Shown: positions 1 through 10,808 of the stretch, in pieces
Layout of the letters: each line of letters starts with the position of its first letter
Numbering within the stretch: position 1 is the stretch's first letter
Translations under genes and position numbers: made by a program
DNA from: a virus
Strand: one strand, 5' to 3'
Length of the DNA stretch: 10,808 nucleotides
UHGV virus genome: UHGV-0129264
The notes under the pieces: model-generated
What the model saw: the letters and a program-made list of their open reading frames with translations, nothing else
Databases searched by the model: none
What the model was told of the DNA's origin: nothing

Positions 1-38
1 AGCACCTCAAAAACACCATCATACACTAAATCAGTAAG

Positions 39-230
39 TTGGCAGCATCACCCAAGGCCGATGTTGTGGAACCTGGTTCGAAATATGCAAGTGCGCGCTA
101 CTCCAGGGGGAATGGGGCATTACCAAAAGACTGCCGAATAATCTTCTTCCATGGCAAACCGCGACCGCGTGAAGTGTCAGAGGATTGGCTTCCTCTCATT
201 AGCGCGTTTTTTGAGCAAGAATCAGGATAA
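39..230 (+). CDS. Hypothetical 63-aa ORF with TTG start; may instead be a frameshifted 3' remnant of a gene entering from the left edge
   Basis: ORF track; in-frame stop at 27-29 bounds it upstream; no internal ATG; weak RBS. A different frame is open from the window edge to a TAA at 139-141. Confidence 0.25.
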   Translation: MAASPKADVVEPGSKYASARYSRGNGALPKDCRIIFFHGKPRPREVSEDWLPLISAFFEQESG

Positions 231-231
231 T

Positions 232-248
232 ATTGCTCTAATAATTCA
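232..248 (+). promoter_or_regulatory. C1 repressor operator-like site ATTGCTCTAATAATTCA
   Basis: 14/17 match to the P1 C1 operator consensus ATTGCTCTAATAAATTT as I recall it; lies directly after the TAA at 228-230 and overlaps a candidate -35. Confidence 0.6.
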
Positions 249-273
249 ATATTTTTAAAACGTGATGTACACT
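245..273 (+). promoter_or_regulatory. Candidate sigma70 promoter (-35 TTCAAT 245-250, 17-bp spacer, -10 TACACT 268-273) flanked by two operator-like sites
   Basis: Hexamers and spacing read from sequence; operator-like sites overlap the -35 and the predicted start region. Confidence 0.35.
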
Positions 274-280
274 CATCGCG

Positions 281-297
281 TTTTTTATTAGAGCAAT
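281..297 (-). promoter_or_regulatory. Second C1 operator-like site in inverted orientation (minus strand reads ATTGCTCTAATAAAAAA)
   Basis: 14/17 to consensus; forms a 13-bp perfect inverted repeat with 232-244, centres about 49 bp apart. Confidence 0.55.
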
Positions 298-311
298 CCA
301 TAAGGTGCACT

Positions 312-530
312 ATGTGGCCATTCCGACGGAAATATCACTACTGGCTGATCACCTTTGTTACGCCGACCGGCGGTATCAGGCATGTCATCACCAGGTATCG
401 CAACAAGAGACTCACCTTAGCCAGAATTTTACAGGCTGCCATAGGTGAGGGACTGGATACAAATTGCGTAGTCCTTCCACCTTCATACTTAGGAAAAATG
501 ACCGAAGCACAAGCTAATACGGAACTTTGA
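312..530 (+). CDS. Hypothetical 72-aa protein, first gene of a C1-operator-controlled operon
   Basis: ATG at 312 preceded by AAGGTG (302-307); TGA at 528-530 followed one base later by the next ATG (532), suggesting translational coupling. Confidence 0.45.
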   Translation: MWPFRRKYHYWLITFVTPTGGIRHVITRYRNKRLTLARILQAAIGEGLDTNCVVLPPSYLGKMTEAQANTEL

Positions 531-531
531 A

Positions 532-1794
532 ATGAGCACTTCAGCACAAAACCAATCAATCGAAAATGTATCTATCCCTGATGTCCTGAATGCCGGTATC
601 CCGGCCATTATCCAGAACATCCGGGCCGCGCAACGCCGCGTTAGTTGTGATGACCTCACAGCACGTTTTTTTGATAATGCGGTTCAGTCAGCGGAGATGC
701 TTCACGCACAGCTTATTGATGTTTATAACGCAGAAGCTGATAGCCATAACTCCCAGGTAGATGCAGCTGAAAATATGCAGTTGGATCTCGGTCTGAAGGG
801 TAAAGAAATTGAAGAGCTTCAGCTGCAAATTGAACATTTGAAACGCCAGCAACAGGACGCGATCGACGATGCGACGCATGACGCCAACCAGCGTGCTGAT
901 AATGCCGAACGTATAAGCATTGAGCTGGAAACAAAACTCAATGAAATGACCGCGATGGTTGAACTGCGGAACTCACAGATTTCAACGCTAAAATCTCAAT
1001 ATAAAGAGATCTGGAAACTTGATCCTTTTAACCTTGAGAAACGCTATAACAAAGCTAAAAGCGAGCGACAGGAACTGCGTAAGCAGGTCGCCGACCTTAA
1101 CCAACAGCTCAAAAAAACTATTAAAGATGCAAGCGAGGCGCGCGTGGCATTTGCTAATAAAAAAGCAGAGGTTACCGCGCTGGTTAATGAGAATGCCAAA
1201 TTTGCGACGCTCAAGAAGGAAATGTATGGCATTACTGAGCGCCGTTTCCCTGCAAGCAAACTTCATCCGACGTTAGGGCAAATCTCCTTCTTCCCGCGCC
1301 TCCTGGCTTATGGGATCTCATCGCCTAAAGAGTTCAATAACGAGCGTCCTTATATCGTTTCTAAGCTGGACTTTGCTTATCAGTTCTGCTGCGACATGGG
1401 CTATGCCATTGATATCCGAATCAACGAATGGTTGATGCCAAACTTCCAGCCGTTGGCAATTTTCCGCGAGTTTCAGCCGGAAGGTTGGGTAGAGTTCTTC
1501 CATGAATTGATCTGTAAAGAGATGGAAAGCCGCCGCCCGGAACTGGTCCGTCGTGTCGAGTGGGCGCAAGAGGTTATGTTAGCAGATGCAGAGCTGCCGT
1601 TCGAACCGGAATTCATTGATGATCTGGCAACTAAAGGGCTGCATACCCTGTTTGATGTGGTTACCCGCCGTCATGAGCAGTTGGTTGTCGAATTGGGTTT
1701 AGAGGAAACTGCGGCAAGAAGACTTCTCGATGTTTGCTATGCACGTAGCGATGCATGGGAAAAAGAGAACGGCGGCACTATTTACGTTCGCTGA
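532..1794 (+). CDS. Hypothetical 420-aa protein: N-terminal ~240 aa coiled-coil-like (heptad-rich, K/E/Q-rich), C-terminal globular domain of unknown function
   Basis: Long ORF with a clean frame; followed by a strong intrinsic terminator. No recognisable catalytic motif (no P-loop, no KxDG). Confidence 0.8.
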   Translation: MSTSAQNQSIENVSIPDVLNAGIPAIIQNIRAAQRRVSCDDLTARFFDNAVQSAEMLHAQLIDVYNAEADSHNSQVDAAENMQLDLGLKGKEIEELQLQIEHLKRQQQDAIDDATHDANQRADNAERISIELETKLNEMTAMVELRNSQISTLKSQYKEIWKLDPFNLEKRYNKAKSERQELRKQVADLNQQLKKTIKDASEARVAFANKKAEVTALVNENAKFATLKKEMYGITERRFPASKLHPTLGQISFFPRLLAYGISSPKEFNNERPYIVSKLDFAYQFCCDMGYAIDIRINEWLMPNFQPLAIFREFQPEGWVEFFHELICKEMESRRPELVRRVEWAQEVMLADAELPFEPEFIDDLATKGLHTLFDVVTRRHEQLVVELGLEETAARRLLDVCYARSDAWEKENGGTIYVR

Positions 1795-1815
1795 TAGTTA
1801 CAGTGTCACTTTTAA

Positions 1816-1847
1816 TGCTGGTGGAGTGCTCCCACCAGCATTTTTTT
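1816..1847 (+). terminator. Rho-independent terminator (9-bp stem TGCTGGTGG/CCACCAGCA, 7-nt loop, T7 tail)
   Basis: Perfect GC-rich hairpin at 1816-1840 followed by TTTTTTT at 1841-1847, 22 bp after the stop at 1794. The next gene follows, so termination is probably partial. Confidence 0.7.
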
Positions 1848-1866
1848 CGTCCAATGAGGAGGGCAT

Positions 1867-2373
1867 TTGAGTATTTTCAATAAACACGCACACCAGGAAC
1901 GTCCGTACATCGTCATAGTAGATATTGATGGGACGATATCAGAGGCAACGGAAGACAGGCTGCATTTACTTCCACCACCTGGCAAAGGTGCATTAACAGA
2001 GCACTGGAACGAGTTTAACCTTGCCTGTGACACTGATGCTCCCATCACTCCAGTTATTGATATGGTGCGCCAGTTGTCCGGCATTTACACCCTCTGGTTT
2101 GTAACCGGGCGCTGTGAGATAGCCAGGGATAAAACACGAGCCTGGTTGCGTAAGCACGTAACAAATGGGGCTGAGCCTTTGCTATCTATGCGTCCTGCCA
2201 CCGATGACAGAAATGACGGTCCAGCAAAGATTGATCTCCTTAAGAAAATTGGTCTAAGTAAAATCGCGTTCGCGCTGGAAGATAAGATTGAAGTGGCGCG
2301 TGTTTTCAGGAGGCACGGCGTGCTTACGTTAATGGTCAGAGAGTATGAAAACGCGCTTCTACATCAACAATAA
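1867..2373 (+). CDS. HAD-superfamily phosphatase-like protein (168 aa) with N-terminal DxDGT motif (IVIVDIDGTI); resembles small phage polynucleotide 3'-phosphatase / acid-phosphatase-like HAD proteins
   Basis: TTG start at 1867 preceded by GAGGAGGG (1856-1863); DxDG[TS] is the HAD motif I nucleophile signature. I recall a P1 gene named pap in this neighbourhood, but the symbol is not verified. Confidence 0.7.
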   Translation: MSIFNKHAHQERPYIVIVDIDGTISEATEDRLHLLPPPGKGALTEHWNEFNLACDTDAPITPVIDMVRQLSGIYTLWFVTGRCEIARDKTRAWLRKHVTNGAEPLLSMRPATDDRNDGPAKIDLLKKIGLSKIAFALEDKIEVARVFRRHGVLTLMVREYENALLHQQ

Positions 2374-2389
2374 TTGCTCTAATAAATAT
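2373..2389 (+). promoter_or_regulatory. C1 operator-like site ATTGCTCTAATAAATAT (16/17 to consensus), overlapping the stop codon of the HAD gene
   Basis: Near-perfect match; followed by TTGATT (2389-2394) and an AT-rich stretch resembling the spacer at 245-260, suggesting a duplicated operator-promoter cassette. Confidence 0.65.
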
Positions 2390-2470
2390 TGATTTTAAAA
2401 CAGAGAAAGTGAAAATAAAAACATGCCGCAAGGCGCGGCATGTATCCAATCAATCACAGGAGCTGAAAAT

Positions 2471-2557
2471 ATGAACACGGCATTCAGAATCATTATGGCC
2501 GCGATCTATTTCTGGCTGTTCTCTATCACTTTTGGCGGCATCGTCGCACATGGGTAA
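2471..2557 (+). CDS. 28-aa hydrophobic peptide (MNTAFRIIMAAIYFWLFSITFGGIVAHG), leader or small membrane peptide
   Basis: ATG at 2471 with AGGAG (2458-2462) 8 nt upstream; its TAA (2555-2557) sits inside the RBS of the next gene. Below the ORF-track size cutoff; found by manual translation. Confidence 0.4.
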   Translation: MNTAFRIIMAAIYFWLFSITFGGIVAHG

Positions 2558-2566
2558 GGGGGATGC

Positions 2567-3745
2567 ATGAAAGGCGAAGTGAAAGAGCGCGGCATGATTT
2601 TTAACGATGAGATGGTCCGGGCAATTCTTGGCGGGAATAAAACACAGACTCGCAGGATTGTTGAAGAAAAATTCTATGGATGGGCAGTGGCCGCAGAGTT
2701 GCTTGCCAAGCATTGTCCATATGGTCAACCGGGCGATCGTATTTGGGTTCGCGAAACCTACCGGGTACATGGCAAAGCGACGGACGTCGCAACGCTGGTT
2801 TATCGCGCAAGCGTGCGTAACTCCTGGACAGAACAAACGCACCGGGTTCCGGTCGAGGTTTGTAATAAACCAGTATCAGAAAAGTGGACGCCATCAATTC
2901 ACATGCCGCGCTGGGCATCGCGCATTCTTCTGGAAATTACCAACGTGCGCGTTGAGCGGTTGAACGATATCAGCGAATGCGATGCAAGGGCTGAGGGCGC
3001 ACCAACAGAATCGACCCTCATTGGCGATAAGCATTACCCAAGTTTCCGTAGCCTATGGAAATCAATTTATGGCGAAGATAGTTGGAACGCTAATCCTTGG
3101 GTGTGGGTAATACAGGCTGATGTCGCGCAGGCAATTGAAAAACTCAAACGGAAATTAGTGGAATGCAATCGCTATAACTACTGCGCAGATGCAGTTAAGG
3201 GCGTTGAGTATGCCTGCCACGCTGCCATGCTTCAGGGTAGCCAACCTGTAAGCCAAAGTAAGACATACAGGTTGGATTTTGGGCAATGGCTGGAACAGCA
3301 ACGCGGGAAAATCGATGTGGACTGTGGTTGTGTGTCCACTGAAACATTCATGCACTGGCTGCGGGTAGCTTACGAGGCTGGCAACTATCCGGATATTCCG
3401 GATAGTTCGGTGCCAGCGCCAGGAAAGGGCGTCACCGGTGAACGTATCCGCATTAAGCCGCATGTTTATCGCGAACTGGTTAACCGTCTCCACGATACAG
3501 CGATCAAGTGTGCTGGCACCCAGCAATTACGAGAAAGAATTAGCCGTGTTTTGGGCGACGTTATTACGCCATATCATCATAAACAAGCCGAGAAAAGCGG
3601 TCTGGAAAGGTGTCATCTTGAGGCAGCATTAAAGATTAAGCCGGGGCATACGCTTGGCATTATTGATGCACTGTTGGTTCATAAGATGGCCAGGGCTTTA
3701 TTGTCGTTGGTGGACGCTGGTGATACAAGCGAGGGTGAAGTATGA
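2567..3745 (+). CDS. 392-aa protein whose N-terminal ~190 aa resembles the ASCH/PUA-like domain common in prophage proteins; C-terminal half unknown
   Basis: ATG at 2567 after AAGGGGGA; N-terminal signature MIFNDEMVRAILGGNKTQTRR...GDRIWVRETY recalled as typical of ASCH-domain proteins (memory, not searched). Confidence 0.8.
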   Translation: MKGEVKERGMIFNDEMVRAILGGNKTQTRRIVEEKFYGWAVAAELLAKHCPYGQPGDRIWVRETYRVHGKATDVATLVYRASVRNSWTEQTHRVPVEVCNKPVSEKWTPSIHMPRWASRILLEITNVRVERLNDISECDARAEGAPTESTLIGDKHYPSFRSLWKSIYGEDSWNANPWVWVIQADVAQAIEKLKRKLVECNRYNYCADAVKGVEYACHAAMLQGSQPVSQSKTYRLDFGQWLEQQRGKIDVDCGCVSTETFMHWLRVAYEAGNYPDIPDSSVPAPGKGVTGERIRIKPHVYRELVNRLHDTAIKCAGTQQLRERISRVLGDVITPYHHKQAEKSGLERCHLEAALKIKPGHTLGIIDALLVHKMARALLSLVDAGDTSEGEV

Positions 3746-3843
3746 GAGTTGCAGATCACATCAAACACCTTGAAAGAATTATCGAAAACGGTGAACTCTT
3801 AAGAGATCAGATGAGACGCACGGCAGAGCCAGGGAGGCGATAA
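3742..3843 (+). CDS. 33-aa ORF overlapping the upstream stop (ATGA); possibly the N-terminal part of a frameshifted gene continuing in the 3873-4103 frame
   Basis: ATG 3742 overlaps TGA 3743-3745; the downstream frame is already open from 3795, so the two frames overlap by ~50 nt. Confidence 0.3.
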   Translation: MRVADHIKHLERIIENGELLRDQMRRTAEPGRR

Positions 3844-3872
3844 TCCGCAGTCAGGCTGGTAAATTAAAGCAA

Positions 3873-4103
3873 TTGTCAGAGATTAACACGCTATACAAGA
3901 ACAGACGTAACCGGGCGGTGATGCGGCTTCAGAAAGCACGTAATGAAATTAAATTGGTGGAGGCAAAACTGAAAAAACAGATCCAGCGTTACGATCAGCA
4001 AGATGCTTTTTATGCCGCCATCAAGGCGGCTGCTAATGAAATAGGCATCTGGAAGTTGCTGGTGGAGAAAGCAAAGACGAAGTTAAATGCCAACGAAAGC
4101 TGA
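3873..4103 (+). CDS. 76-aa K/E-rich helical small protein, TTG start (alternative ATG at 3921)
   Basis: ORF track; weak RBS; hairpin ATGTGC-N6-GCACAT at 4109-4126 just after the stop. Confidence 0.4.
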   Translation: MSEINTLYKNRRNRAVMRLQKARNEIKLVEAKLKKQIQRYDQQDAFYAAIKAAANEIGIWKLLVEKAKTKLNANES

Positions 4104-4159
4104 ACTACATGTGCCCACCAGCACATACAGAAAATGATTGTTTCCACATCAAAGAGATT

Positions 4160-4182
4160 TTAATGTTTCACTGAAACATTAA
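4160..4182 (-). terminator. Perfect 23-bp palindrome TTAATGTTTCA-C-TGAAACATTAA, likely terminator for the minus-strand small gene (or a protein-binding site)
   Basis: Overlaps the stop codon (4179-4181) of the 45-aa ORF; on the minus strand the hairpin is followed by TTAAAATCTCTTT. No U-tract on the plus strand. Confidence 0.45.
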
Positions 4183-4316
4183 GTAAGCCAGTGCATAATT
4201 CCATTTTTTACTGACCTTAAAAGCAAAATCAAAACGATGATGAGGATAATAGCCAGAATCTGGCTAATAATAGGCGCATCTAAAAATGCACTCAGGAACT
4301 GAAAAAAAGCGTTCAT
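4179..4316 (-). CDS. 45-aa hydrophobic single-helix peptide (MNAFFQFLSAFLDAPIISQILAIILIIVLILLLRSVKNGIMHWLT), small membrane protein
   Basis: Manual minus-strand translation; ATG at 4316-4314 preceded by AAGGAA (complement of 4324-4329) at 7-8 nt; stop embedded in palindromic terminator; not in the ORF track (<60 aa). Confidence 0.55.
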   Translation of the reverse strand: MNAFFQFLSAFLDAPIISQILAIILIIVLILLLRSVKNGIMHWLT

Positions 4317-5178
4317 TCAGGTGGTTCCTTGTCAAATGTAAAGGTGCACTTGCTCACGTTGACGTAGAAACCCAACCCCTATATAGTTGGATTCGGTGAA
4401 TGAAAGTCGTTAACGTGAGCTTACGGCACATGTTTTCGGAAAAACATCAGGGAACGGCTAATTCCTTGATGCGGGTGGGGTCTGTAATGCAGACCCTATC
4501 TATTAACGTCATGATTGCATCTCAAATTTTCTCCTTATCTTCAATTAATCTACATTCATTTCATCTGTTAGCCACCACAATATGTAGAAAATGGCCCTCT
4601 TGCAAGTGCATAACTTTGTGGATAACTCAGGAAGGAAAAAGTGGCTTTCGCGCACCTTCGGTCAGACAAGGTGTCCGGGAAAGTCAACGCAAAGAAAAAA
4701 ATTGTTAAAAATAACGTTTGTTGGAATTGTATATTTTTATCCCCTTCAATGGTTAGCATTCTATTAACATCTTTTTTTAGAGACAGAAAAACATATCGTA
4801 ACAACATATATACAGTATTAAGAGGCGAGTATTATCCTGCGGTGGGAATTCTGGGCGCTGTTAGATTCGACTTTCTCAGCGGGATTACATCGTCAACTTG
4901 CGACGTTGCCGTATGACTTTCGTGTAATAGGTGACAATGATGCGGCTAGTGAGTTACTTGTGAAGTTTTTCGGAAAAGGTTTTGTGGCCTCGGATCTTGA
5001 TGAGCTACAGCAACATGAAGTGTCTAATTTGATTTTTAGCCATAGCCAATAAGCCTCCCTCCTCCATCAAGGCCACAATTTGTGACCTTAAACAATTTGT
5101 TTTCTGCTTTTTCTTATTTGAGGAAATAACGTTGTTGACAGCTAATAGGCTCGTTGTTGTTATACATACCTGTATAGA

Positions 5179-5535
5179 TTATGACCGTAAATTATTAGCG
5201 GATTTTAAGCCATATTCACCGTTGTAGAAATTACTCATGTTCCATTCATTAGGAAGTTCTTTTCTGTCCAATGTATAGTGGCGCACGATATAACGATCTT
5301 CATCTTCTTCGATGGACAGGCGGACATAGCCAATGTGAATCACCGATACGGGCGGTGTTCGTATTGCATAGATGTCGCGGAGATATACCGGCAGCTCGAC
5401 AAATGCATCAGGTGCATCTGTGATGCTCGTTTTTTCACAGTATTCATATAACGCATCGTTGATATCGTTAAGAGATTCATGATCGTATATTTCCAGGTAA
5501 TTACCGCGATCGCGATGGTACTCGATTTTAGCCAT
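5179..5535 (-). CDS. Hypothetical 118-aa acidic protein, second gene of a minus-strand pair
   Basis: ATG at 5535-5533 abuts the stop of the upstream gene (minus strand reads TGAATG); AGGGGA 6 nt upstream, inside the upstream gene's 3' end. Confidence 0.7.
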   Translation of the reverse strand: MAKIEYHRDRGNYLEIYDHESLNDINDALYEYCEKTSITDAPDAFVELPVYLRDIYAIRTPPVSVIHIGYVRLSIEEDEDRYIVRHYTLDRKELPNEWNMSNFYNGEYGLKSANNLRS

Positions 5536-5943
5536 TCAAAATCCCCTGTTATCGTTTTGCATTTCTCTAATCCGGTTCAGAACTACTTCGTGCTGGACTT
5601 GGATAGCGGCTTTTTCGTTTTCAAGCCGGGCAATAGACATCTCTAATTCTTTGCTGTACCAGGCGAGCTGGGCCAGGTTCATCCGGTTGTGGTCGAGAGT
5701 TGGAGACACTTCGACGCGATCCCTTTCTTTCTGCTTTAATGAGAAGAGATTCATCTCATCCCTTGAGGAAAATTCAGCAACAATTTCTTGTTGATGATCC
5801 GGTCGCTGCGGCATCCTCGCCAGTATAAATGGCGGTTCTTTTGAAAACATGAATGTCGGTTCAGACCGTGTTTTTACCCAGCTTGCCTGCTGTCTTTCGG
5901 CAAGTTCACAGGCTTCATCATAGTTATCTGCCAAACAAAGCAC
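5536..5943 (-). CDS. Hypothetical 135-aa protein with C-terminal coiled-coil-like segment, first gene of the minus-strand pair; start uncertain
   Basis: GTG start at 5943 without a clear SD; internal ATGs at codons 32 and 44 also lack a well-spaced SD. Confidence 0.6.
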   Translation of the reverse strand: MLCLADNYDEACELAERQQASWVKTRSEPTFMFSKEPPFILARMPQRPDHQQEIVAEFSSRDEMNLFSLKQKERDRVEVSPTLDHNRMNLAQLAWYSKELEMSIARLENEKAAIQVQHEVVLNRIREMQNDNRGF

Positions 5944-6256
5944 GGATGGACGGTCTCACGCCCCACCATTCAGACAATAAACTACAATTTTCCCGTCAGG
6001 TTGTGTAATCCCATATGGATGGTCCCACTAGGCGTCCAGCTGAGCTTTAGAGCGTTTCTCGTTAGGAGTGCAGTCAAAATTTTTGGGCAATACAGGATCG
6101 AGAGGAATGCGATTAGGCATAGCTAATTCCTTATTAACTGATTGGCAACGAGGTTACGCTGATCCCGCGGTGATGAATAGTAGCAAAGCGCACAAAAATC
6201 ATCAGCGGTGGTTGATGTACATAACGCGTTTGCACCAAAGGTGCTTCTTTAATGTA

Positions 6257-6276
6257 TACTGTATAGATAAACAGTA
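6257..6276 (+). promoter_or_regulatory. LexA (SOS) box TACTGTATAGATAAACAGTA overlapping a -10 (TATACT 6255-6260) upstream of the UmuD'-like gene
   Basis: Perfect CTGT-N8-ACAG with AT-rich spacer; the only such site I found in the window; candidate -35 TTGCAC at 6230-6235. Confidence 0.85.
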
Positions 6277-6294
6277 TTTTTGAGGTAAAACGCT

Positions 6295-6684
6295 ATGGGT
6301 TTCCCTTCTCCTGCGGCGGATTATGTTGAAAGCCGAATTTCTCTTGATCAGCAGATAATTAGACATCCATCAGCAACCTACTTCATGCGGGCAGCTGATA
6401 GCCATCACCGTGAGGGAATATTGCAGGGTGCTTTGCTGGTGGTTGATTCTTCGCTTACTCCAGTTGATGGTTCGCTGCTTGTGTGCGCTATGGAGGGTGA
6501 ATATCGCATAAAGAGATACCGAAAGTATCCGCGCCAGCACCTGGAGGATTTAAGCACCGGGAAGAAAGAGGCGTTACCAGTGGATGACGATGGATGCACG
6601 GGGAGTAATGCTGTGTTTGGTGTGATCACTCATGTCATTAATGATGCCCGAAGTGGGGAATTTGATGATTGTCCGGTGATTTAA
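6295..6684 (+). CDS. humD: HumD, UmuD'-like S24 peptidase-fold protein lacking the N-terminal autocleavage segment (begins at the GFPSPAADYVE motif)
   Basis: Strong similarity to E. coli UmuD from the post-cleavage residue onward; Ser and Lys aligned with UmuD catalytic positions; GAGG RBS; LexA box upstream. Confidence 0.9.
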   Translation: MGFPSPAADYVESRISLDQQIIRHPSATYFMRAADSHHREGILQGALLVVDSSLTPVDGSLLVCAMEGEYRIKRYRKYPRQHLEDLSTGKKEALPVDDDGCTGSNAVFGVITHVINDARSGEFDDCPVI

Positions 6685-6726
6685 GCTGCAAAGTGCTGGT
6701 GCTTTATGCCTGTGAAGTTTATAATT

Positions 6727-6747
6727 GTGTACACATAACGAGTACAC
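6727..6747 (+). promoter_or_regulatory. Phd/Doc operator: perfect palindrome GTGTACAC (6727-6734) plus imperfect GAGTACAC (6740-6747), with -10 TATAAT at 6720-6725
   Basis: Two adjacent 8-bp palindromic sites immediately upstream of phd, matching the known autoregulated operator layout. Confidence 0.75.
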
Positions 6748-6756
6748 GAGGTGTTT

Positions 6757-6978
6757 ATGCAATCCATTAACTTCCGTACCGCGCGCGGCAACCTTTCTGA
6801 AGTGCTCAACAATGTTGAAGCCGGGGAAGAGGTTGAAATCACCCGCAGAGGCCGTGAGCCAGCAGTAATTGTCAGCAAGGCTACTTTCGAAGCCTACAAA
6901 AAAGCGGCGCTGGATGCTGAATTTGCATCCCTGTTTGACACCCTGGACTCCACCAACAAGGAACTGGTTAACCGATAA
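6757..6978 (+). CDS. phd: Phd antitoxin (prevent-host-death), 73 aa
   Basis: Sequence [41 protein letters not shown]... matches P1 Phd as I recall it; ATG at 6757 (track start 6751 is an upstream GTG); stop overlaps the doc start (TAATG). Confidence 0.95.
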
Positions 6979-7358
6979 TGAGGCATATATCACCGGAAGA
7001 ACTTATTGCGCTTCATGATGCGAATATAAACCGCTACGGCGGCCTGCCGGGAATGTCAGATCCGGGTAGGGCAGAGGCCATTATCGGGAGAGTTCAGGCC
7101 AGAGTCGCCTACGAAGAGATCACCGACCTTTTCGAAGTCTCCGCCACCTACCTGGTGGCTACAGCGAGAGGGCATATATTCAATGATGCCAATAAGCGTA
7201 CCGCGCTAAACAGTGCGCTGTTATTTCTACGCCGTAACGGGGTGCAGGTATTTGATTCACCTGAACTGGCAGACCTTACCGTAGGGGCTGCGACCGGAGA
7301 GATATCTGTATCTTCTGTCGCCGACACGTTACGTAGATTGTATGGTTCCGCGGAGTAG
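6978..7358 (+). CDS. doc: Doc toxin (death-on-curing, Fic-fold kinase), 126 aa
   Basis: [17 protein letters not shown]...[11 protein letters not shown]... matches P1 Doc as I recall it; translationally coupled to phd. Confidence 0.95.
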
Positions 7359-7362
7359 ATTA

Positions 7363-7542
7363 ATGGCACGTAAATACAACAAATTGTCCCGTGAAGCGTT
7401 AAAGATGCTTCTTGATGGCGTGAGTCGCCGCGAGGTAAAGCAATACCTGGTTGGTAAGCAAATTGGTGCTAGGACCGCTATTGCTGTGTTATGCCGTCAG
7501 GAAATGGTTGTGCTTAAACAGAGAATGCCGGGCAGCAGATAA
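7363..7542 (+). CDS. Small 59-aa basic protein with probable helix-turn-helix (post-doc small gene, possibly pdcA)
   Basis: ATG at 7363 with GGAG (7352-7355) 7 nt upstream, 5 nt after the doc stop; the track's 7342 start lies inside doc and lacks an SD. Confidence 0.5.
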   Translation: MARKYNKLSREALKMLLDGVSRREVKQYLVGKQIGARTAIAVLCRQEMVVLKQRMPGSR

Positions 7543-7569
7543 AGCCCAATCAGTGATGAAAGGTGTGAT

Positions 7570-8613
7570 GTGAAAGCCGTAATTACTCCCTTTGTACAAA
7601 AAGAGCTTGGCGTCGCCACATTCAAAGTGGATCAGGAAGTCAGAAAGCTGGTGGAGGCTGGCCGTAAATTTATTATGGAGCCGGTGCCGCGTGAGTTAAT
7701 CGAGCACATGGACGACGGCCTCGTTGTTTCCGAGCAAACTATGGCAACAAATGAGGCGTTGCAGCCGTTTTTTAACAGCGATGAACTGTTTCGCCGTATT
7801 GGTGGAATTGACGCGCTGGTGGCGTGGTTGCGCAGGAAAGAGGGGCAATGCCAGGCCGCAGATCGTAGCTGGTGTGACAACCATATTGTCCACGCAGAAC
7901 GAGACAATAGCGCGGTGTTGTTGTGCTGGCATCACGATAACCATTACCGGATGCGTGGTTTTAATGAGCTGAAAGAAACGCTGCATAATAATCGCGTTAA
8001 CTGGATACTGGATGTCGCCCGTCAGGAAATGGGGCTTTCAGATGGCCATGATCTAAGTATTCAGGAACTGTGCTGGTGGGCTTTCATGCGCAACATGATG
8101 CACCTGATGCCGGAAGAAGTTTGCCGTATATCAATAAATAAGATGAAAGCCGCAACGCAGGATAGCGGACCTCTGAAAGAGGCGGATATTCGCCCGTATG
8201 ACGATCGCGCTACAGCATATGTTCAGATGATGGAAGAACGCGCCGCGCCGATGCGTGCAAAAGTATGCCCTGTGGATGTTGACTCCGACCCTGGCATGGC
8301 GCATTTCAAAATACCAAAACTGCAATCGCTAAAATTACCTGAGTACATGGACTTTGTTGCTTCCCGTCCATGCTGTGGGTGTGGAGCGGCGGGAGCTGGC
8401 GCTCACATTACGCCTTATATCGTTCGTCATAGTCGATTATGCGCGCATGACATTTACGCAATTCCTCTGTGCCAGTCATGCCAGCGTGATATTGAGCGTG
8501 ACCGCGATAATTGGGAGAAGACGCACGGTAGGCTGGCGATGCATCAACGATTGTTCTTTGATTACGCGCTTGGAGTCGGCGCTATCACAAGTCACTCGTC
8601 GAGCGTTATATAA
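7570..8613 (+). CDS. pdcB: PdcB-like 347-aa protein (post-doc), Cys/His-rich with a possible HNH-like motif ([24 protein letters not shown]) and a C-terminal Cys cluster
   Basis: GTG start at 7570 with AAGGTG SD; position after phd-doc as in P1; motif reading is by eye only. Confidence 0.75.
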
Positions 8614-8614
8614 A

Positions 8615-8656
8615 ATTGCTCTAATGTATTGCTATTTCTTTAATCGAGGGTATTAT
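8615..8656 (+). promoter_or_regulatory. C1 operator-like site ATTGCTCTAATGTATTG (8615-8631) overlapping -35 TTGCTA (8629-8634), 16-bp spacer, -10 TATTAT (8651-8656): C1-repressed promoter for lpa
   Basis: 14/17 to operator consensus; promoter hexamers and spacing read from sequence; consistent with known C1 control of the late-promoter activator gene. Confidence 0.6.
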
Positions 8657-8701
8657 ATTCCACGTTGATTAGTTGACATGGGCTAATCAGTAGGTGACAG
8701 G

Positions 8702-9154
8702 ATGTTACTTAACTGGCAGGGACGCCACTTCATGGAAATAAATCACTCACGAATAACATCGTACGAGATTGCGGATTACATGATCCGCACTAAATCTCTT
8801 CTATCAGCGAAAGAACTCGCAGCAATTCTTGAAAAGGAATACCCGCATCTGGATGTCGATAAGCGCGATGTTTATCTGCGCTTAAAGGCTATCGCTGTGT
8901 CTAAGTATTCGTCTGTTTTGATTGATGACAGTACACGCCCACGTAGATTTCAGATCCACTCTCTGAATCCTGAATTCTTTCGCCGTAGCCGCGCTCCGCG
9001 CCGGTTTGATGAAAAACTCCAGAACGAACTCTATATGACGCAGGACGAAAAGGAACGCCGGGAGCACCAGCCTTGGGTAATGGCGCGTCAACTTTTCAAT
9101 AAGGTGGCCCGTCAGCACCGTCATTACGGTAATGCCACATCCGCACGTATCTGA
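8702..9154 (+). CDS. lpa: Lpa, late promoter activator (gene 10 product)
   Basis: Position between pdcB and pacA with a C1-controlled promoter upstream; AGGTGA SD before ATG 8702; identity rests on synteny (sequence not recalled). Confidence 0.7.
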   Translation: MLLNWQGRHFMEINHSRITSYEIADYMIRTKSLLSAKELAAILEKEYPHLDVDKRDVYLRLKAIAVSKYSSVLIDDSTRPRRFQIHSLNPEFFRRSRAPRRFDEKLQNELYMTQDEKERREHQPWVMARQLFNKVARQHRHYGNATSARI

Positions 9155-9239
9155 TTGATTGCTTGCTCGTTCCGGGCCTTTTGACATGTGACTTTCGTTA
9201 CCCTCGCGTCAAAAAGAGTTTTTACGAAAGGAAGCATAA

Positions 9240-10025
9240 GTGACCTGGGACGATCACAAGAAGAATTTTGCTCGCCTGGCGCGAGATGGTGGTTACACCA
9301 TCGCACAGTATGCCGCCGAGTTTAATCTTAACCCTAATACCGCACGTCGTTATCTCCGTGCCTTCAAAGAAGACACCAGGACTGCGGACAGCCGCAAGCC
9401 AAATAAGCCAGTCAGGAAGCCACTAAAAAGCATGATCATTGATCACTCTAATGATCAACATGCAGGTGATCATATTGCGGCTGAAATAGCGGAAAAACAG
9501 AGAGTTAATGCCGTTATCAGTGCCGCAGTCGAGAATGCGAAGCGCCAAAATAAGCGCATAAATGATCGTTCAGATGATCATGACGTGATCACCCGCGCCC
9601 ACCGGACCTTACGTGATCGCCTGGAACGCGACACCCTGGATGATGATGGTGAACGCTTTGAATTCGAAGCTGGCGATTACCTGATAGATAACGTTGAAGC
9701 GCGGAAGGCCGCGCGCGCTATGTTGCGTCGGTCCGGGGCCGATGTTCTGGAAACCACTCTTCTTGAAAAGTCTCTTTCTCATCTCCTTATGCTGGAGAAC
9801 GCCAGGGATACGTGTATTCGCCTGGTGCAGGAAATGCGCGATCAGCAAAAAGACGATGATGAAGGTACTCCGCCTGAATACCGTATCGCGAGCATGCTAA
9901 ACAGCTGTTCCGCGCAGATAAGCAGCCTGATCAACACCATTTACAGCATCCGGAATAACTATCGAAAAGAAAGCCGGGAGGCGGAAAAGGGGTCCGCTTG
10001 GAAAACGGAAAATATCCTACGCTAA
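9240..10025 (+). pseudogene. pacA: pacA (pacase/terminase small subunit) truncated by transposon insertion: about 249 native codons then 12 codons read from the transposon IR before a stop
   Basis: GTG start 9240 with AGGAAG SD; N-terminus [10 protein letters not shown] matches P1 PacA as I recall; the reading frame runs into the 38-bp IR at 9989 and ends at TAA 10023-10025; native PacA is about 400 aa. Confidence 0.85.
9433..9591 (+). repeat. P1 pac site: four TGATCA hexamers (9433-9438, 9440-9445, 9452-9457, 9467-9472) and three TGATCR hexamers (9563-9568, 9575-9580, 9586-9591) flanking the cleavage region
   Basis: The 4+3 arrangement of Dam-site-containing hexamers inside the 5' part of pacA matches the described pac site architecture. 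Confidence 0.9.
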
Positions 10026-10026
10026 G
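9989..10026. repeat. 38-bp terminal inverted repeat of a Tn3-family transposon (GGGGTCCGCTTGGAAAACGGAAAATATCCTACGCTAAG), Tn21/Tn501-subgroup-like
   Basis: GGGG terminus, internal GAAAACGGAAAAT and terminal ACGCTAAG match Tn21-type IRs from memory; the tnpA stop lies inside the IR, as is typical. Confidence 0.85.
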
Positions 10027-10808
10027 CCTGTTTTTTGTACAGGCTGCTGTCTACTGAGCGTAACGAACGGTATTTCCCCTGTCCCAGCTTGAGGTTTGTT
10101 CGCCAGACGTAATCTCCGCTCAGGTTGATGTGTTCCCATCCCAGAGGGGACAGATGAGAAATCAGCTGGTCATTGATTAGGATCCCTTTTCGCTTCAGAG
10201 AATCTATGGCTCTTTCTATATATACCGTATTCCAGAGTGAGATCGCCGCAGTCAGCAAGGTGAGCCCACTTGCCCGATAGCTCTGGTATTCCAGTCCCCG
10301 ATCTCTGATTTCACCCAGCCGGTGCATAAAGACTGCGCGCGCAAGGGCATTCCGCGCCTCACCTTTATTCAGCCCTGCCTGTACGCGTCGACGCAGGGAA
10401 GGATCCCGGAACCAGTCCAGCATAAACAATGACCTTTCGATGCGACCAATTTCCCTTAGCGCTTTTGCCAGACCATTTTGTTTCGGATAGCTGGCCAGCT
10501 TTTTCATCATCAGTGATGCTGTTACCGTTCCCTGTTTTATAGAGTTCGCCAGACGTAGCACCTCACTCCAGTGGGTTTCAATGTCCTTTAGATTCAGGCT
10601 GGTTGTGGAAATAATTGACTGAAGCCCCGGATACAACTCGGATTTTCCATGAATAAACAATCTCTTGTCATGAAGATCCCGGATCCTTGGCGCAAAAGCG
10701 AATCCGAGCAGATGCATCAACGCGAAAACATGATCAGTGAAACCTGCGGTGTCGGTGTAATGCTCTGTAATCTCCAGCTCGCTTTCGTGATACAGCAAGC
10801 CGTCAAGT
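10022..10808 (-). CDS. tnpA: Tn3-family transposase TnpA, C-terminal ~260 aa (partial; N-terminus beyond window end)
   Basis: C-terminal region ([21 protein letters not shown]...[13 protein letters not shown]) is typical of Tn3-family DDE transposases; ORF is open to the window edge. Confidence 0.9.

Follow-up and report, generated by a model that had tools for sequence, protein, structure and literature searches.

The Op86-controlled pmgR-pmgS unit of a P1/P7-like phage-plasmid, the adjacent pap gene, and proposed roles for their products

The DNA discussed here is a stretch of 10,808 nucleotides from the virus genome UHGV-0129264, hereafter called the window; all coordinates refer to it unless they are marked as P1 coordinates. 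Near its left end, three open reading frames (ORFs) on the plus strand encode proteins of 72 (312-530), 420 (532-1794), and 168 amino acids (1867-2373). They had been recognized in an earlier reading of the sequence alone, without database searches (the sequence-only reading), and they correspond to the genes pmgR, pmgS, and pap of phage P1, respectively. They are preceded by two inverted operators for the repressor C1, Op86a and Op86b, and followed by a third one, Op88. In nucleotide comparisons, bases 53-2700 showed 97-98% identity to phages P1, P7, SJ46, RCS47, and JL22, and bases 1-9989 were 100% identical to P1-like phage-plasmids of Shigella, Salmonella, and Escherichia coli. The P1 counterpart is found at P1 positions 82152-84293 of GenBank record AF234172, which lists OpmgRa, the predicted promoter PpmgR, OpmgRb, pmgR, pmgS, pap (annotated as "putative P1 acid phosphatase"), and OpmgT (Op88) in this order, with the remark that OpmgRa, formerly called Op86a, controls the expression of pmgR and pmgS. 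The P7 record has an identical layout, with operators Op(sht[a]) and Op(sht[b]) and a "sht operon" plus pap. Operators, spacing, genes, and terminator, followed by Op88, are the same in P1, P7, and the window. The region differs from that of P1 by point changes only, e.g., an A-to-G change in a hairpin that creates a G-U pair; in addition, pmgQ is truncated by IS1 in the window, and the sequence downstream of position ~2620 tracks P7, not P1. The operators, the genes, and their layout are already annotated in P1 and P7 and were rediscovered here. We consider the region, with a probability of about 0.8, to be the Op86-controlled pmgR-pmgS unit of a P1/P7-like phage-plasmid, with pap located in a slot between the pmgS terminator and Op88, and with the regulation and the roles of PmgR, PmgS, and Pap proposed below.

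Across the IMG/VR and GTDB loci of the P1/P7 type that were compared, about 80 in number, the spacing of this layout is constant. Op86a and Op86b are located 300 and 251 nt upstream of the pmgS start, respectively, the pmgR start is 220 nt upstream of the pmgS start, the pap start lies 73 nt past the pmgS stop, and Op88 directly follows pap. For a more divergent comparison, four P1-like lineages were used whose PmgS proteins are 51-70% identical; the hairpin and promoter comparisons below include about five independent lineages.

The operators were scanned for with the 17-bp asymmetric consensus ATTGCTCTAATAAATTT, allowing up to three mismatches. Matches were found at 232-248, 2373-2389, and 8615-8631 on the plus strand and at 281-297 on the minus strand, i.e., four matches where 0.07 would be expected, and none of 200 shuffled sequences gave four. 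Op86a, also called OpmgRa (232-248, plus strand, ATTGCTCTAATAATTCA), and Op86b, also called OpmgRb (281-297, ATTGCTCTAATAAAAAA on the minus strand), each match the consensus at 14 of 17 positions. Op88, also called OpmgT (2373-2389, plus strand), matches at 16 of 17; its first base is the last base of the pap stop codon, and it opens the next C1-controlled unit. The two sites in front of pmgR are the positional equivalents of OpmgRa/b in P1 and Op(sht[a]/[b]) in P7. Their cores are invariant within the P1/P7-like clade, i.e., in about 80 loci, where the bases just downstream of Op86b vary freely. In the four divergent lineages, the flanks cannot be aligned and both operator cores are still there; the Op86b core TTATTAGAGCAA is kept in all lineages compared. 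Also the start of the next unit is marked by an operator in every case. By homology and conservation, the two inverted operator-like sites noticed in the sequence-only reading are the Op86a and Op86b annotated in P1 and P7. C1 would presumably bind to both; the c1 gene lies outside the window, and a literature search on Op86 and Op88 yielded no relevant paper.

Two candidate promoters are found at this operator pair. The first is the window's equivalent of the predicted sigma-70 promoter PpmgR of P1 (233-261, plus strand), with TTGCTC (233-238) as putative -35 and TAAAAC (256-261) as putative -10 hexamer; it is a prediction only, and its -10 hexamer is not conserved in divergent relatives. The second (246-273, plus strand) would have its -35 hexamer, TCAATA (246-251), at the 3' edge of Op86a and, after a 16-bp spacer, its -10 hexamer, TACACT (268-273), in the loop of a hairpin. 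This loop hexamer fits the pattern TAnnnT in all lineages (TACACT, TATTAT, TATCAT). In two divergent lineages (L002 and L004), a sigma-70 promoter with 9 of 12 consensus matches was called at the homologous place, with the loop hexamer as -10 and the -35 at the edge of operator a. In the window, a consensus scan called no sigma-70 promoter between the operators, the alternative candidate being below the threshold. The candidate promoter that had been placed between the operators is predicted in the P1 record and called in the two related lineages, but it is not called in the window itself. Either position falls under the operator pair. In a lysogen, the promoter would be blocked by C1 sitting on the inverted operators on either side of it.

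The hairpin itself (257-286, plus strand) has a stem of 11 pairs (257-267 with 274-284), a loop at 268-273, and a run of six T residues (281-286). Its minimum free energy (MFE) as RNA is -13 kcal/mol (z -4.5). It is found in all five lineages (L001, L002, L004, L006, and L009), with four of the 11 pairs changed on both sides, and 95.8% of the hairpin cells are paired vs. 40-71% when the partners are slid. Since nine of the changes that affect one side only give G-U wobbles in the plus-strand RNA, the hairpin appears to function in rightward transcripts. The pmgR mRNA would begin inside or past the hairpin from either candidate promoter and, therefore, the hairpin is read as terminating or attenuating the transcription of the pmgN-pmgQ unit upstream, which in P1 is under Op83. 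Most likely, the hairpin with its T-run ends the transcripts of that unit and overlaps the promoter of the next one. It is not annotated in the P1 record.

Downstream of the operators, the pmgS start codon follows the pmgR stop codon after 1 nt, and the two genes are translationally coupled. All P1-like lineages examined have the pair, even the distant phage-plasmid D6, and a survey of 77 P1-like plasmids counted both genes among the 21 that were full-length in each of them (PMC9603915). After induction or infection, PmgR would be made, and PmgS would be co-translated with it. The position of pap is different. An intrinsic terminator is located between pmgS and pap (1814-1849, plus strand), with a stem-loop at 1814-1842 (11-bp stem with six GC pairs, 7-nt loop) followed by seven T residues; it has an MFE of -18.1 kcal/mol (z -3.8) and shows the features of a rho-independent terminator on the coding strand. 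It is also present in P1, and L004 has a hairpin and T-run of different sequence at the same place; the hairpin is absent in L002, L006, and L009. The Shine-Dalgarno sequence of pap, GAGGAGGG (1856-1863), begins 7 nt after the T-run. This leaves no room for a promoter and, therefore, pap needs either read-through or a promoter inside pmgS, where a promoter scan detected none. Pap would thus be made only by read-through of the pmgS terminator. In a preprint on an hfq mutant, the pmgS and pap transcripts behaved alike and pmgR was grouped with pmgQ and pmgT, which is weak evidence of read-through into pap; a paper on RNA sequencing of P1vir and DksA does not mention pmgR, pmgS, or pap. The pap gene is absent in L006, L041, and D6. 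In L006, the slot is empty, with the next operator ~65 nt after pmgS, and in L002 and L009, extra ORFs are found ahead of pap. Because a strong terminator separates pmgS from pap, the single three-gene operon proposed in the sequence-only reading is not established: pmgR and pmgS are coupled and kept together, whereas pap lies behind a terminator and is absent or displaced in relatives.

PmgR (72 amino acids, 312-530, plus strand; ShtA in P7) matches PHROG 3177 (1.7e-46) and no Pfam or NCBIfam family. The pmgR gene is a known head-completion or morphogenesis gene. Its deletion resulted in tails plus incomplete heads and was complemented in trans (180-fold), and PmgR was not detected in virions (PMC9024508). 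According to this literature, PmgR is required for completed, tail-joined heads.

PmgS (420 amino acids, 532-1794, plus strand; ShtB in P7) matches PHROG 1660 over residues 1-420 (7.2e-193). It consists of a conserved N-terminal helix, a coiled coil of ~190 residues, a central alpha/beta domain, and a C-terminal domain resembling two consecutive helix-hairpin-helix motifs, (HhH)2. The sequence-only reading had called it a coiled-coil protein, and it is indeed largely coiled coil. Close relatives are confined to P1-like elements (28 clusters). A profile search of 1.84 billion representatives retrieved 82 proteins, ~40 of which are full-length (350-470 amino acids) with 17-28% identity. A later homolog search with the alignment of distant members yielded almost only P1-type sequences, and a scan of genome contigs gave three loci; for one distant homolog (P0062), no relatives were found in viral contigs. 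The distant homologs contain a canonical C-terminal helix-hairpin-helix, "KGIGxKTAxxI", and pass Pfam thresholds, i.e., HHH_5 with 29.8 against a cutoff of 27 for P0062 and RNA_pol_A_CTD with 25.4 against 23.8 for P0082.

Structure prediction, which had been proposed for the 420-residue protein in the sequence-only reading, gave the following model. AlphaFold2 (AF2) run on an alignment of 24 sequences predicted PmgS with a mean confidence (pLDDT) of 83.5; an earlier run on eight close homologs was poor (65.5). The model has long helices at residues 41-159 and 166-232, with a conserved proline-containing break between them, an alpha/beta domain at ~239-350, and a C-terminal domain of five helices, as in the (HhH)2 fold. 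Known domains of this type are the N-terminal domain of RAD51, RadA, and RAD51C, AR1/AR2 of NusA, and the C-terminal domain of the RNA polymerase alpha subunit (alpha-CTD). PmgS differs in that it has no ATPase core, its (HhH)2-like domain is joined to a long coiled coil and an alpha/beta domain, and the second hairpin is degenerate in P1-type PmgS. Foldseek searches of PDB and BFVD detected no structural relative of the central alpha/beta domain. A sequence search of the PDB with PmgS returned coiled-coil noise only, and matches to NCBIfam SMC and PADLOC LmuB were discarded as coiled-coil artefacts far below the cutoffs.

The genomic context of the homologs in phages other than P1 is that of recombination or early regions. 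A 48.6-kb phage from IMG/VR (L090) carries genes for a RecE-like exonuclease and RecT, followed by the PmgS homolog, with a CI-like repressor and an anti-repressor encoded nearby. In Aeromonas phage phiARM81mr, the order is CI, several ORFs, exoVIII, RecT, integrase, an ORF of 58 codons, the PmgS homolog, a hypothetical ORF, and a Dam-type methyltransferase. Phage 15G has RecT and a Mu-Gam-like protein, then the PmgS homolog; in two Vibrio phages, a DNA methyltransferase gene directly follows the homolog, and in Aeromonas ST4, an endonuclease gene precedes it. In none of these phages is a PmgR-like neighbor found; the ORF of 58 codons upstream of the homolog in phiARM81mr was considered as a candidate and ruled out (E 4.9).

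The deletion of pmgS was among the 24 of 29 P1 knockouts without a plaque or anti-restriction defect, and the main text of the virion proteome paper does not mention PmgS (PMC9024508). In a CRISPR interference (CRISPRi) knock-down, the efficiency of plating was 1.2, and the gene was scored as non-essential. PmgS appears, as modeled, to be a coiled-coil protein that is neither essential nor part of the virion and that carries an (HhH)2 fold of the DNA-binding type at its C-terminus. We give about even odds to the proposal that it acts on phage DNA, in recombination, replication or end metabolism, or in maturation before packaging, and is not a sheath or head component. Its relatives in other temperate phages are encoded within RecE/RecT/Gam recombination modules. 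As a side observation, several database variants of PmgS (P0021-P0028, ~230-250 amino acids) are frameshifted after roughly residue 170-200, which suggests that pmgS has been pseudogenised in some P1-like plasmids, despite its label "extremely conserved".

Several points weigh against the interpretation given so far. PmgS of the window has no Pfam HhH match of its own, and its second hairpin is degenerate, with LGLE where the homologs have GIG. The HhH fold rests on an AF2 model that was built with HhH-bearing homologs, and Foldseek searches of PDB and BFVD with PmgS gave no significant E-values (best 0.08). The argument from context is based on six independent non-P1 phages only. The promoter hexamers of the window are weak and were not called by the consensus scan. 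Neither pmgS nor pap has a known phenotype, and functions assigned to either are therefore inferences. Finally, the close and ancient coupling of pmgR and pmgS and the P7 label "sheath contraction" would fit a morphogenetic role of PmgS equally well.

According to this last view, pmgR and pmgS would both be genes for virion morphogenesis, PmgS being a non-essential coiled-coil assembly chaperone or scaffold that works with PmgR. Consistent with it are the translational coupling to pmgR, an essential morphogenetic gene with which pmgS stays paired throughout the P1-like lineages, the long coiled coil, which is typical of scaffolds and chaperones, and the older labels, i.e., "sheath structure or assembly" for shtA and "sheath contraction" for shtB in P7 and "prohead scaffolding protein" in D6. 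However, these labels contradict each other, as they refer to the sheath in P7, to nothing specified in P1, to a scaffold in D6, and to "head morphogenesis" in PHROGs; no experimental basis was found for the head or sheath function that the name of PHROG 1660 implies. Furthermore, the pmgS deletion gives normal plaques and the main text on the virion proteome is silent about PmgS, the promoter of the unit seems to be an early one controlled by C1, the non-P1 homologs lack PmgR and occur in recombination or early regions, not near structural genes, and the C-terminal domain has an (HhH)2-type fold. We consider a morphogenetic role of PmgS unlikely on balance.

Pap (168 amino acids, 1867-2373, plus strand) starts at a TTG codon behind the Shine-Dalgarno sequence mentioned above. 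It is a stand-alone HAD phosphatase of the type found in the polynucleotide kinase/3'-phosphatase (Pnkp) of phage T4. It matches the Pfam family HAD_PNKP (PF25109) with 44.7 bits, the cutoff being 27.6, as well as PHROGs 415 and 505, both labeled "polynucleotide kinase". A profile of nine Pap family members retrieved Pnkp1 (4xrp, 5e-6), the isolated T4 phosphatase domain (5uj0, 1e-5), and full-length T4 Pnkp (1ltq, 7.5e-5) from the PDB. The DxDGT phosphatase predicted from the sequence alone is confirmed in this respect: motif I, D19-I-D21-G22-T23, is invariant in the nine family members and aligns with D165-V-D167-G-T of T4. The residues T80, R82, D117, K121, and E138-D139, which are also invariant in the family, align with S211, R213, D254, K258, and D277-D278 of the T4 enzyme. 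Together with D165 and D167, these are presumably the essential phosphatase residues of T4 Pnkp. Pap shares with the C-terminal HAD domain of T4 Pnkp/PseT (1ltq, 5uj0) the PF25109 family, DxDGT, the S/T-G-R motif, the equivalents of D254 and K258, and an acidic pair. It differs from the T4 protein in the absence of the N-terminal P-loop kinase, in having E-D instead of D-D in motif IV, and in a longer insert after DxDGT, and an RNA ligase partner is not evident. The best PDB match of the profile, the phosphatase domain of Capnocytophaga gingivalis Pnkp1 (4xrp), covers motifs II-IV. Pnkp1 is a two-domain protein of 312 amino acids that belongs, by the name of the entry, to a bacterial RNA repair complex; Pap corresponds to the phosphatase domain alone. 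The phosphatase alignment covers all 168 residues of Pap from end to end, and no P-loop 5'-kinase domain is present. No kinase or RNA ligase family was found among the neighboring ORFs of the window that were scanned; those at 2423-2557 and 2567-3745 match no Pfam family.

Stand-alone homologs of Pap with 35-40% identity are found in 1160 phage records. The stand-alone phosphatases of PHROG 415, from Drexlerviridae, Webervirus, Kagunavirus, and KP34-like Autographiviridae, match Pap over the whole protein and are usually mislabeled "polynucleotide kinase". These phages are virulent, and some of the genes lie in DNA-metabolism modules (exonuclease, endonuclease VII, dNMP kinase, DNA ligase), whereas pap belongs to a temperate phage-plasmid and is located behind a terminator. 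In Drexlerviridae, the homologs are found among hypothetical genes; in the KP34-like phage PP99, the homolog is located between genes for a DNA repair exonuclease, a dNMP kinase, and a DNA ligase. In the two PHROG 415 records inspected (damhaus and PP99), the coding sequences are of ~180-190 codons. Hundreds of phage genes labeled "polynucleotide kinase" or "3'-phosphatase, 5'-polynucleotide kinase" look phosphatase-only.

The pap deletion was also among the 24 of 29 P1 knockouts without a plaque or anti-restriction phenotype (PMC9024508), and a CRISPRi knock-down resulted in an efficiency of plating of 0.77, which was scored as non-essential. By sequence comparison, the fold and the active site of Pap are of the T4 Pnkp type, and most likely the protein takes 3'-phosphates off the ends of DNA or RNA or off 3'-nucleotides. 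Pap would be an accessory function without a kinase partner that clears 3'-phosphates from nucleic-acid ends or nucleotides. The label "acid phosphatase" implies another possibility, i.e., that Pap is an enzyme of the nucleotide pool, a 3'-nucleotidase or another HAD phosphatase acting on small molecules. Promiscuity is frequent among HAD phosphatases, the T4 enzyme accepts 3'-mononucleotides as well, the PP99 homolog adjoins the gene for a dNMP kinase, and there is a marginal match to class B acid phosphatases (PF03767, E 0.093). However, the match to the specific family HAD_PNKP is well above the cutoff, and the residues that align with those we take to be essential in T4 are all conserved, including R82 (T4 R213) and D117 (T4 D254). 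A dedicated role in the nucleotide pool is, therefore, not the likely one, and the assignment as a 3'-phosphatase of the Pnkp type is preferred.

A further possibility, which we regard as doubtful, unites the three proteins in a module for DNA ends or DNA maturation, distinct from structural morphogenesis. PmgS, as an (HhH)2 coiled-coil protein, would then bind replicating or recombining P1 DNA, in line with the RecET and Gam linkage of its relatives, the PmgR phenotype would reflect a failure of packaging, and Pap would clear the 3'-phosphate ends left by host or defense nucleases for extension, ligation, or packaging. The phenotype observed for PmgR, in which heads and tails are not joined, resembles that of a knockout of the terminase gene pacA.

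Doubtful as well is the role proposed in the sequence-only reading, i.e., that of a counter-defense or RNA end-healing operon derepressed upon loss of C1 control, in which Pap would heal the 3'-phosphate or 2',3'-cyclic-phosphate ends produced by nucleases that cleave tRNA or other RNA, with the 420-residue protein as its partner. Pap does belong to the same phosphatase family as the end-healing domains of T4 Pnkp and Pnkp1, expression appears to be early and controlled by C1, and the published deletions covered plaquing and anti-restriction, not RNA-cleaving defenses. However, Pap lacks the 5'-kinase domain that would be required for classical RNA end healing, and there is no sign of a kinase or ligase partner in the two ORFs just downstream of pap (2423-2557 and 2567-3745). 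Moreover, PmgR is a morphogenesis gene product, a terminator splits pap from pmgRS, relatives lack pap or can dispense with it, anti-restriction activity is unchanged in the pmgS and pap deletions, and PADLOC gives coiled-coil noise only. No account of a stand-alone Pnkp-type phosphatase acting in counter-defense came up in a literature search. Thus, no positive evidence for this role was obtained, and what is known of PmgR, the missing kinase, and the absence of a phenotype in the pmgS and pap deletions speak against it. The sequence-only reading had itself named dispensability of the operon as an argument against its proposal; pmgS and pap are indeed dispensable under laboratory conditions and with the restriction systems tested. 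Lastly, that the operator-like sites are chance matches in AT-rich DNA without a regulatory role, as the three mismatches to the 17-bp consensus in each of the two sites might suggest, is extremely improbable given the four sites found vs. 0.07 expected, their orthology to annotated P1 and P7 operators, the invariance of the cores in about 80 loci and their retention where the flanks cannot be aligned, and the operator that is always found at the start of the following unit as well.

The Op86-controlled unit and pap are flanked by further C1-controlled units, of which the upstream one is truncated in the window. The 3' remnant of pmgQ (hdmD in P7; 53-230, plus strand), the last gene of the upstream C1-controlled unit, is cut at base 52/53 by an IS1 end. 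The ORF fragment corresponds to positions 171-229 of the PHROG 1962 profile, which has 230 positions. Matches to IS1 ends cover bases 1-52, and P1 homology begins right after them, at base 53. Many plasmids of Shigella, Salmonella, and E. coli share the IS1/P1 junction with 100% identity. Owing to the IS1 insertion, the remainder of the upstream unit, including ppp, does not adjoin this region. In P1, ppp encodes a second phosphatase, a metallophosphoesterase similar to lambda phosphatase, in the neighboring C1 unit two genes upstream of Op86 (P1 80760-81452; 1288-1980 in L001). Ppp and Pap are, therefore, two unrelated phosphatases encoded ~2.3 kb apart in P1, with ppp missing from the window. 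In the rightward block pmgL-pmgV of P1 (L098, P1 78485-84310), Op82, Op83, Op86a/b, and Op88 mark off four short units whose genes are mostly non-essential, and the late promoter LPpmgL is annotated only at the start of this block.

On the other side, just downstream of Op88, a terminator-like hairpin is found on the minus strand (2421-2443; 10-bp stem with six GC pairs and a T-run), with no leftward gene evident nearby. The fourth operator-like site (8615-8631, ATTGCTCTAATGTATTG, three mismatches) is located between a DUF968 gene (7570-8613) and lpa (8702-9154, PF25716), and it is presumably a C1 operator that controls the late-promoter activator. Homology to P7 ends at ~9989 inside pacA (ORF 9240-10025), and the truncated pacA is followed by a fragment of a Tn3-family transposase gene on the minus strand (10022-10798; PF01526, 2.5e-90). 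The gene for the terminase seems to be interrupted, so that the element may be unable to package its DNA.

The features described here have been present in the GenBank records of P1 and P7 for two decades, and their existence is nothing new. What is new is that the PmgS family combines an (HhH)2 fold with a genomic context of recombination modules, which leads to a testable hypothesis of DNA binding. The same combination conflicts with the label "PmgS-like head morphogenesis" of PHROG 1660, which has been copied into RefSeq phage annotations and is doubtful. Similarly, the "polynucleotide kinase" labels of phage phosphatases, including Pap, represent a systematic over-annotation. The full-length presence of pmgR and pmgS in all 77 surveyed P1-like plasmids concerns elements that spread CTX-M and mcr resistance genes, and the function of pmgS, once learnt, would fill a real, if modest, gap in the biology of P1.

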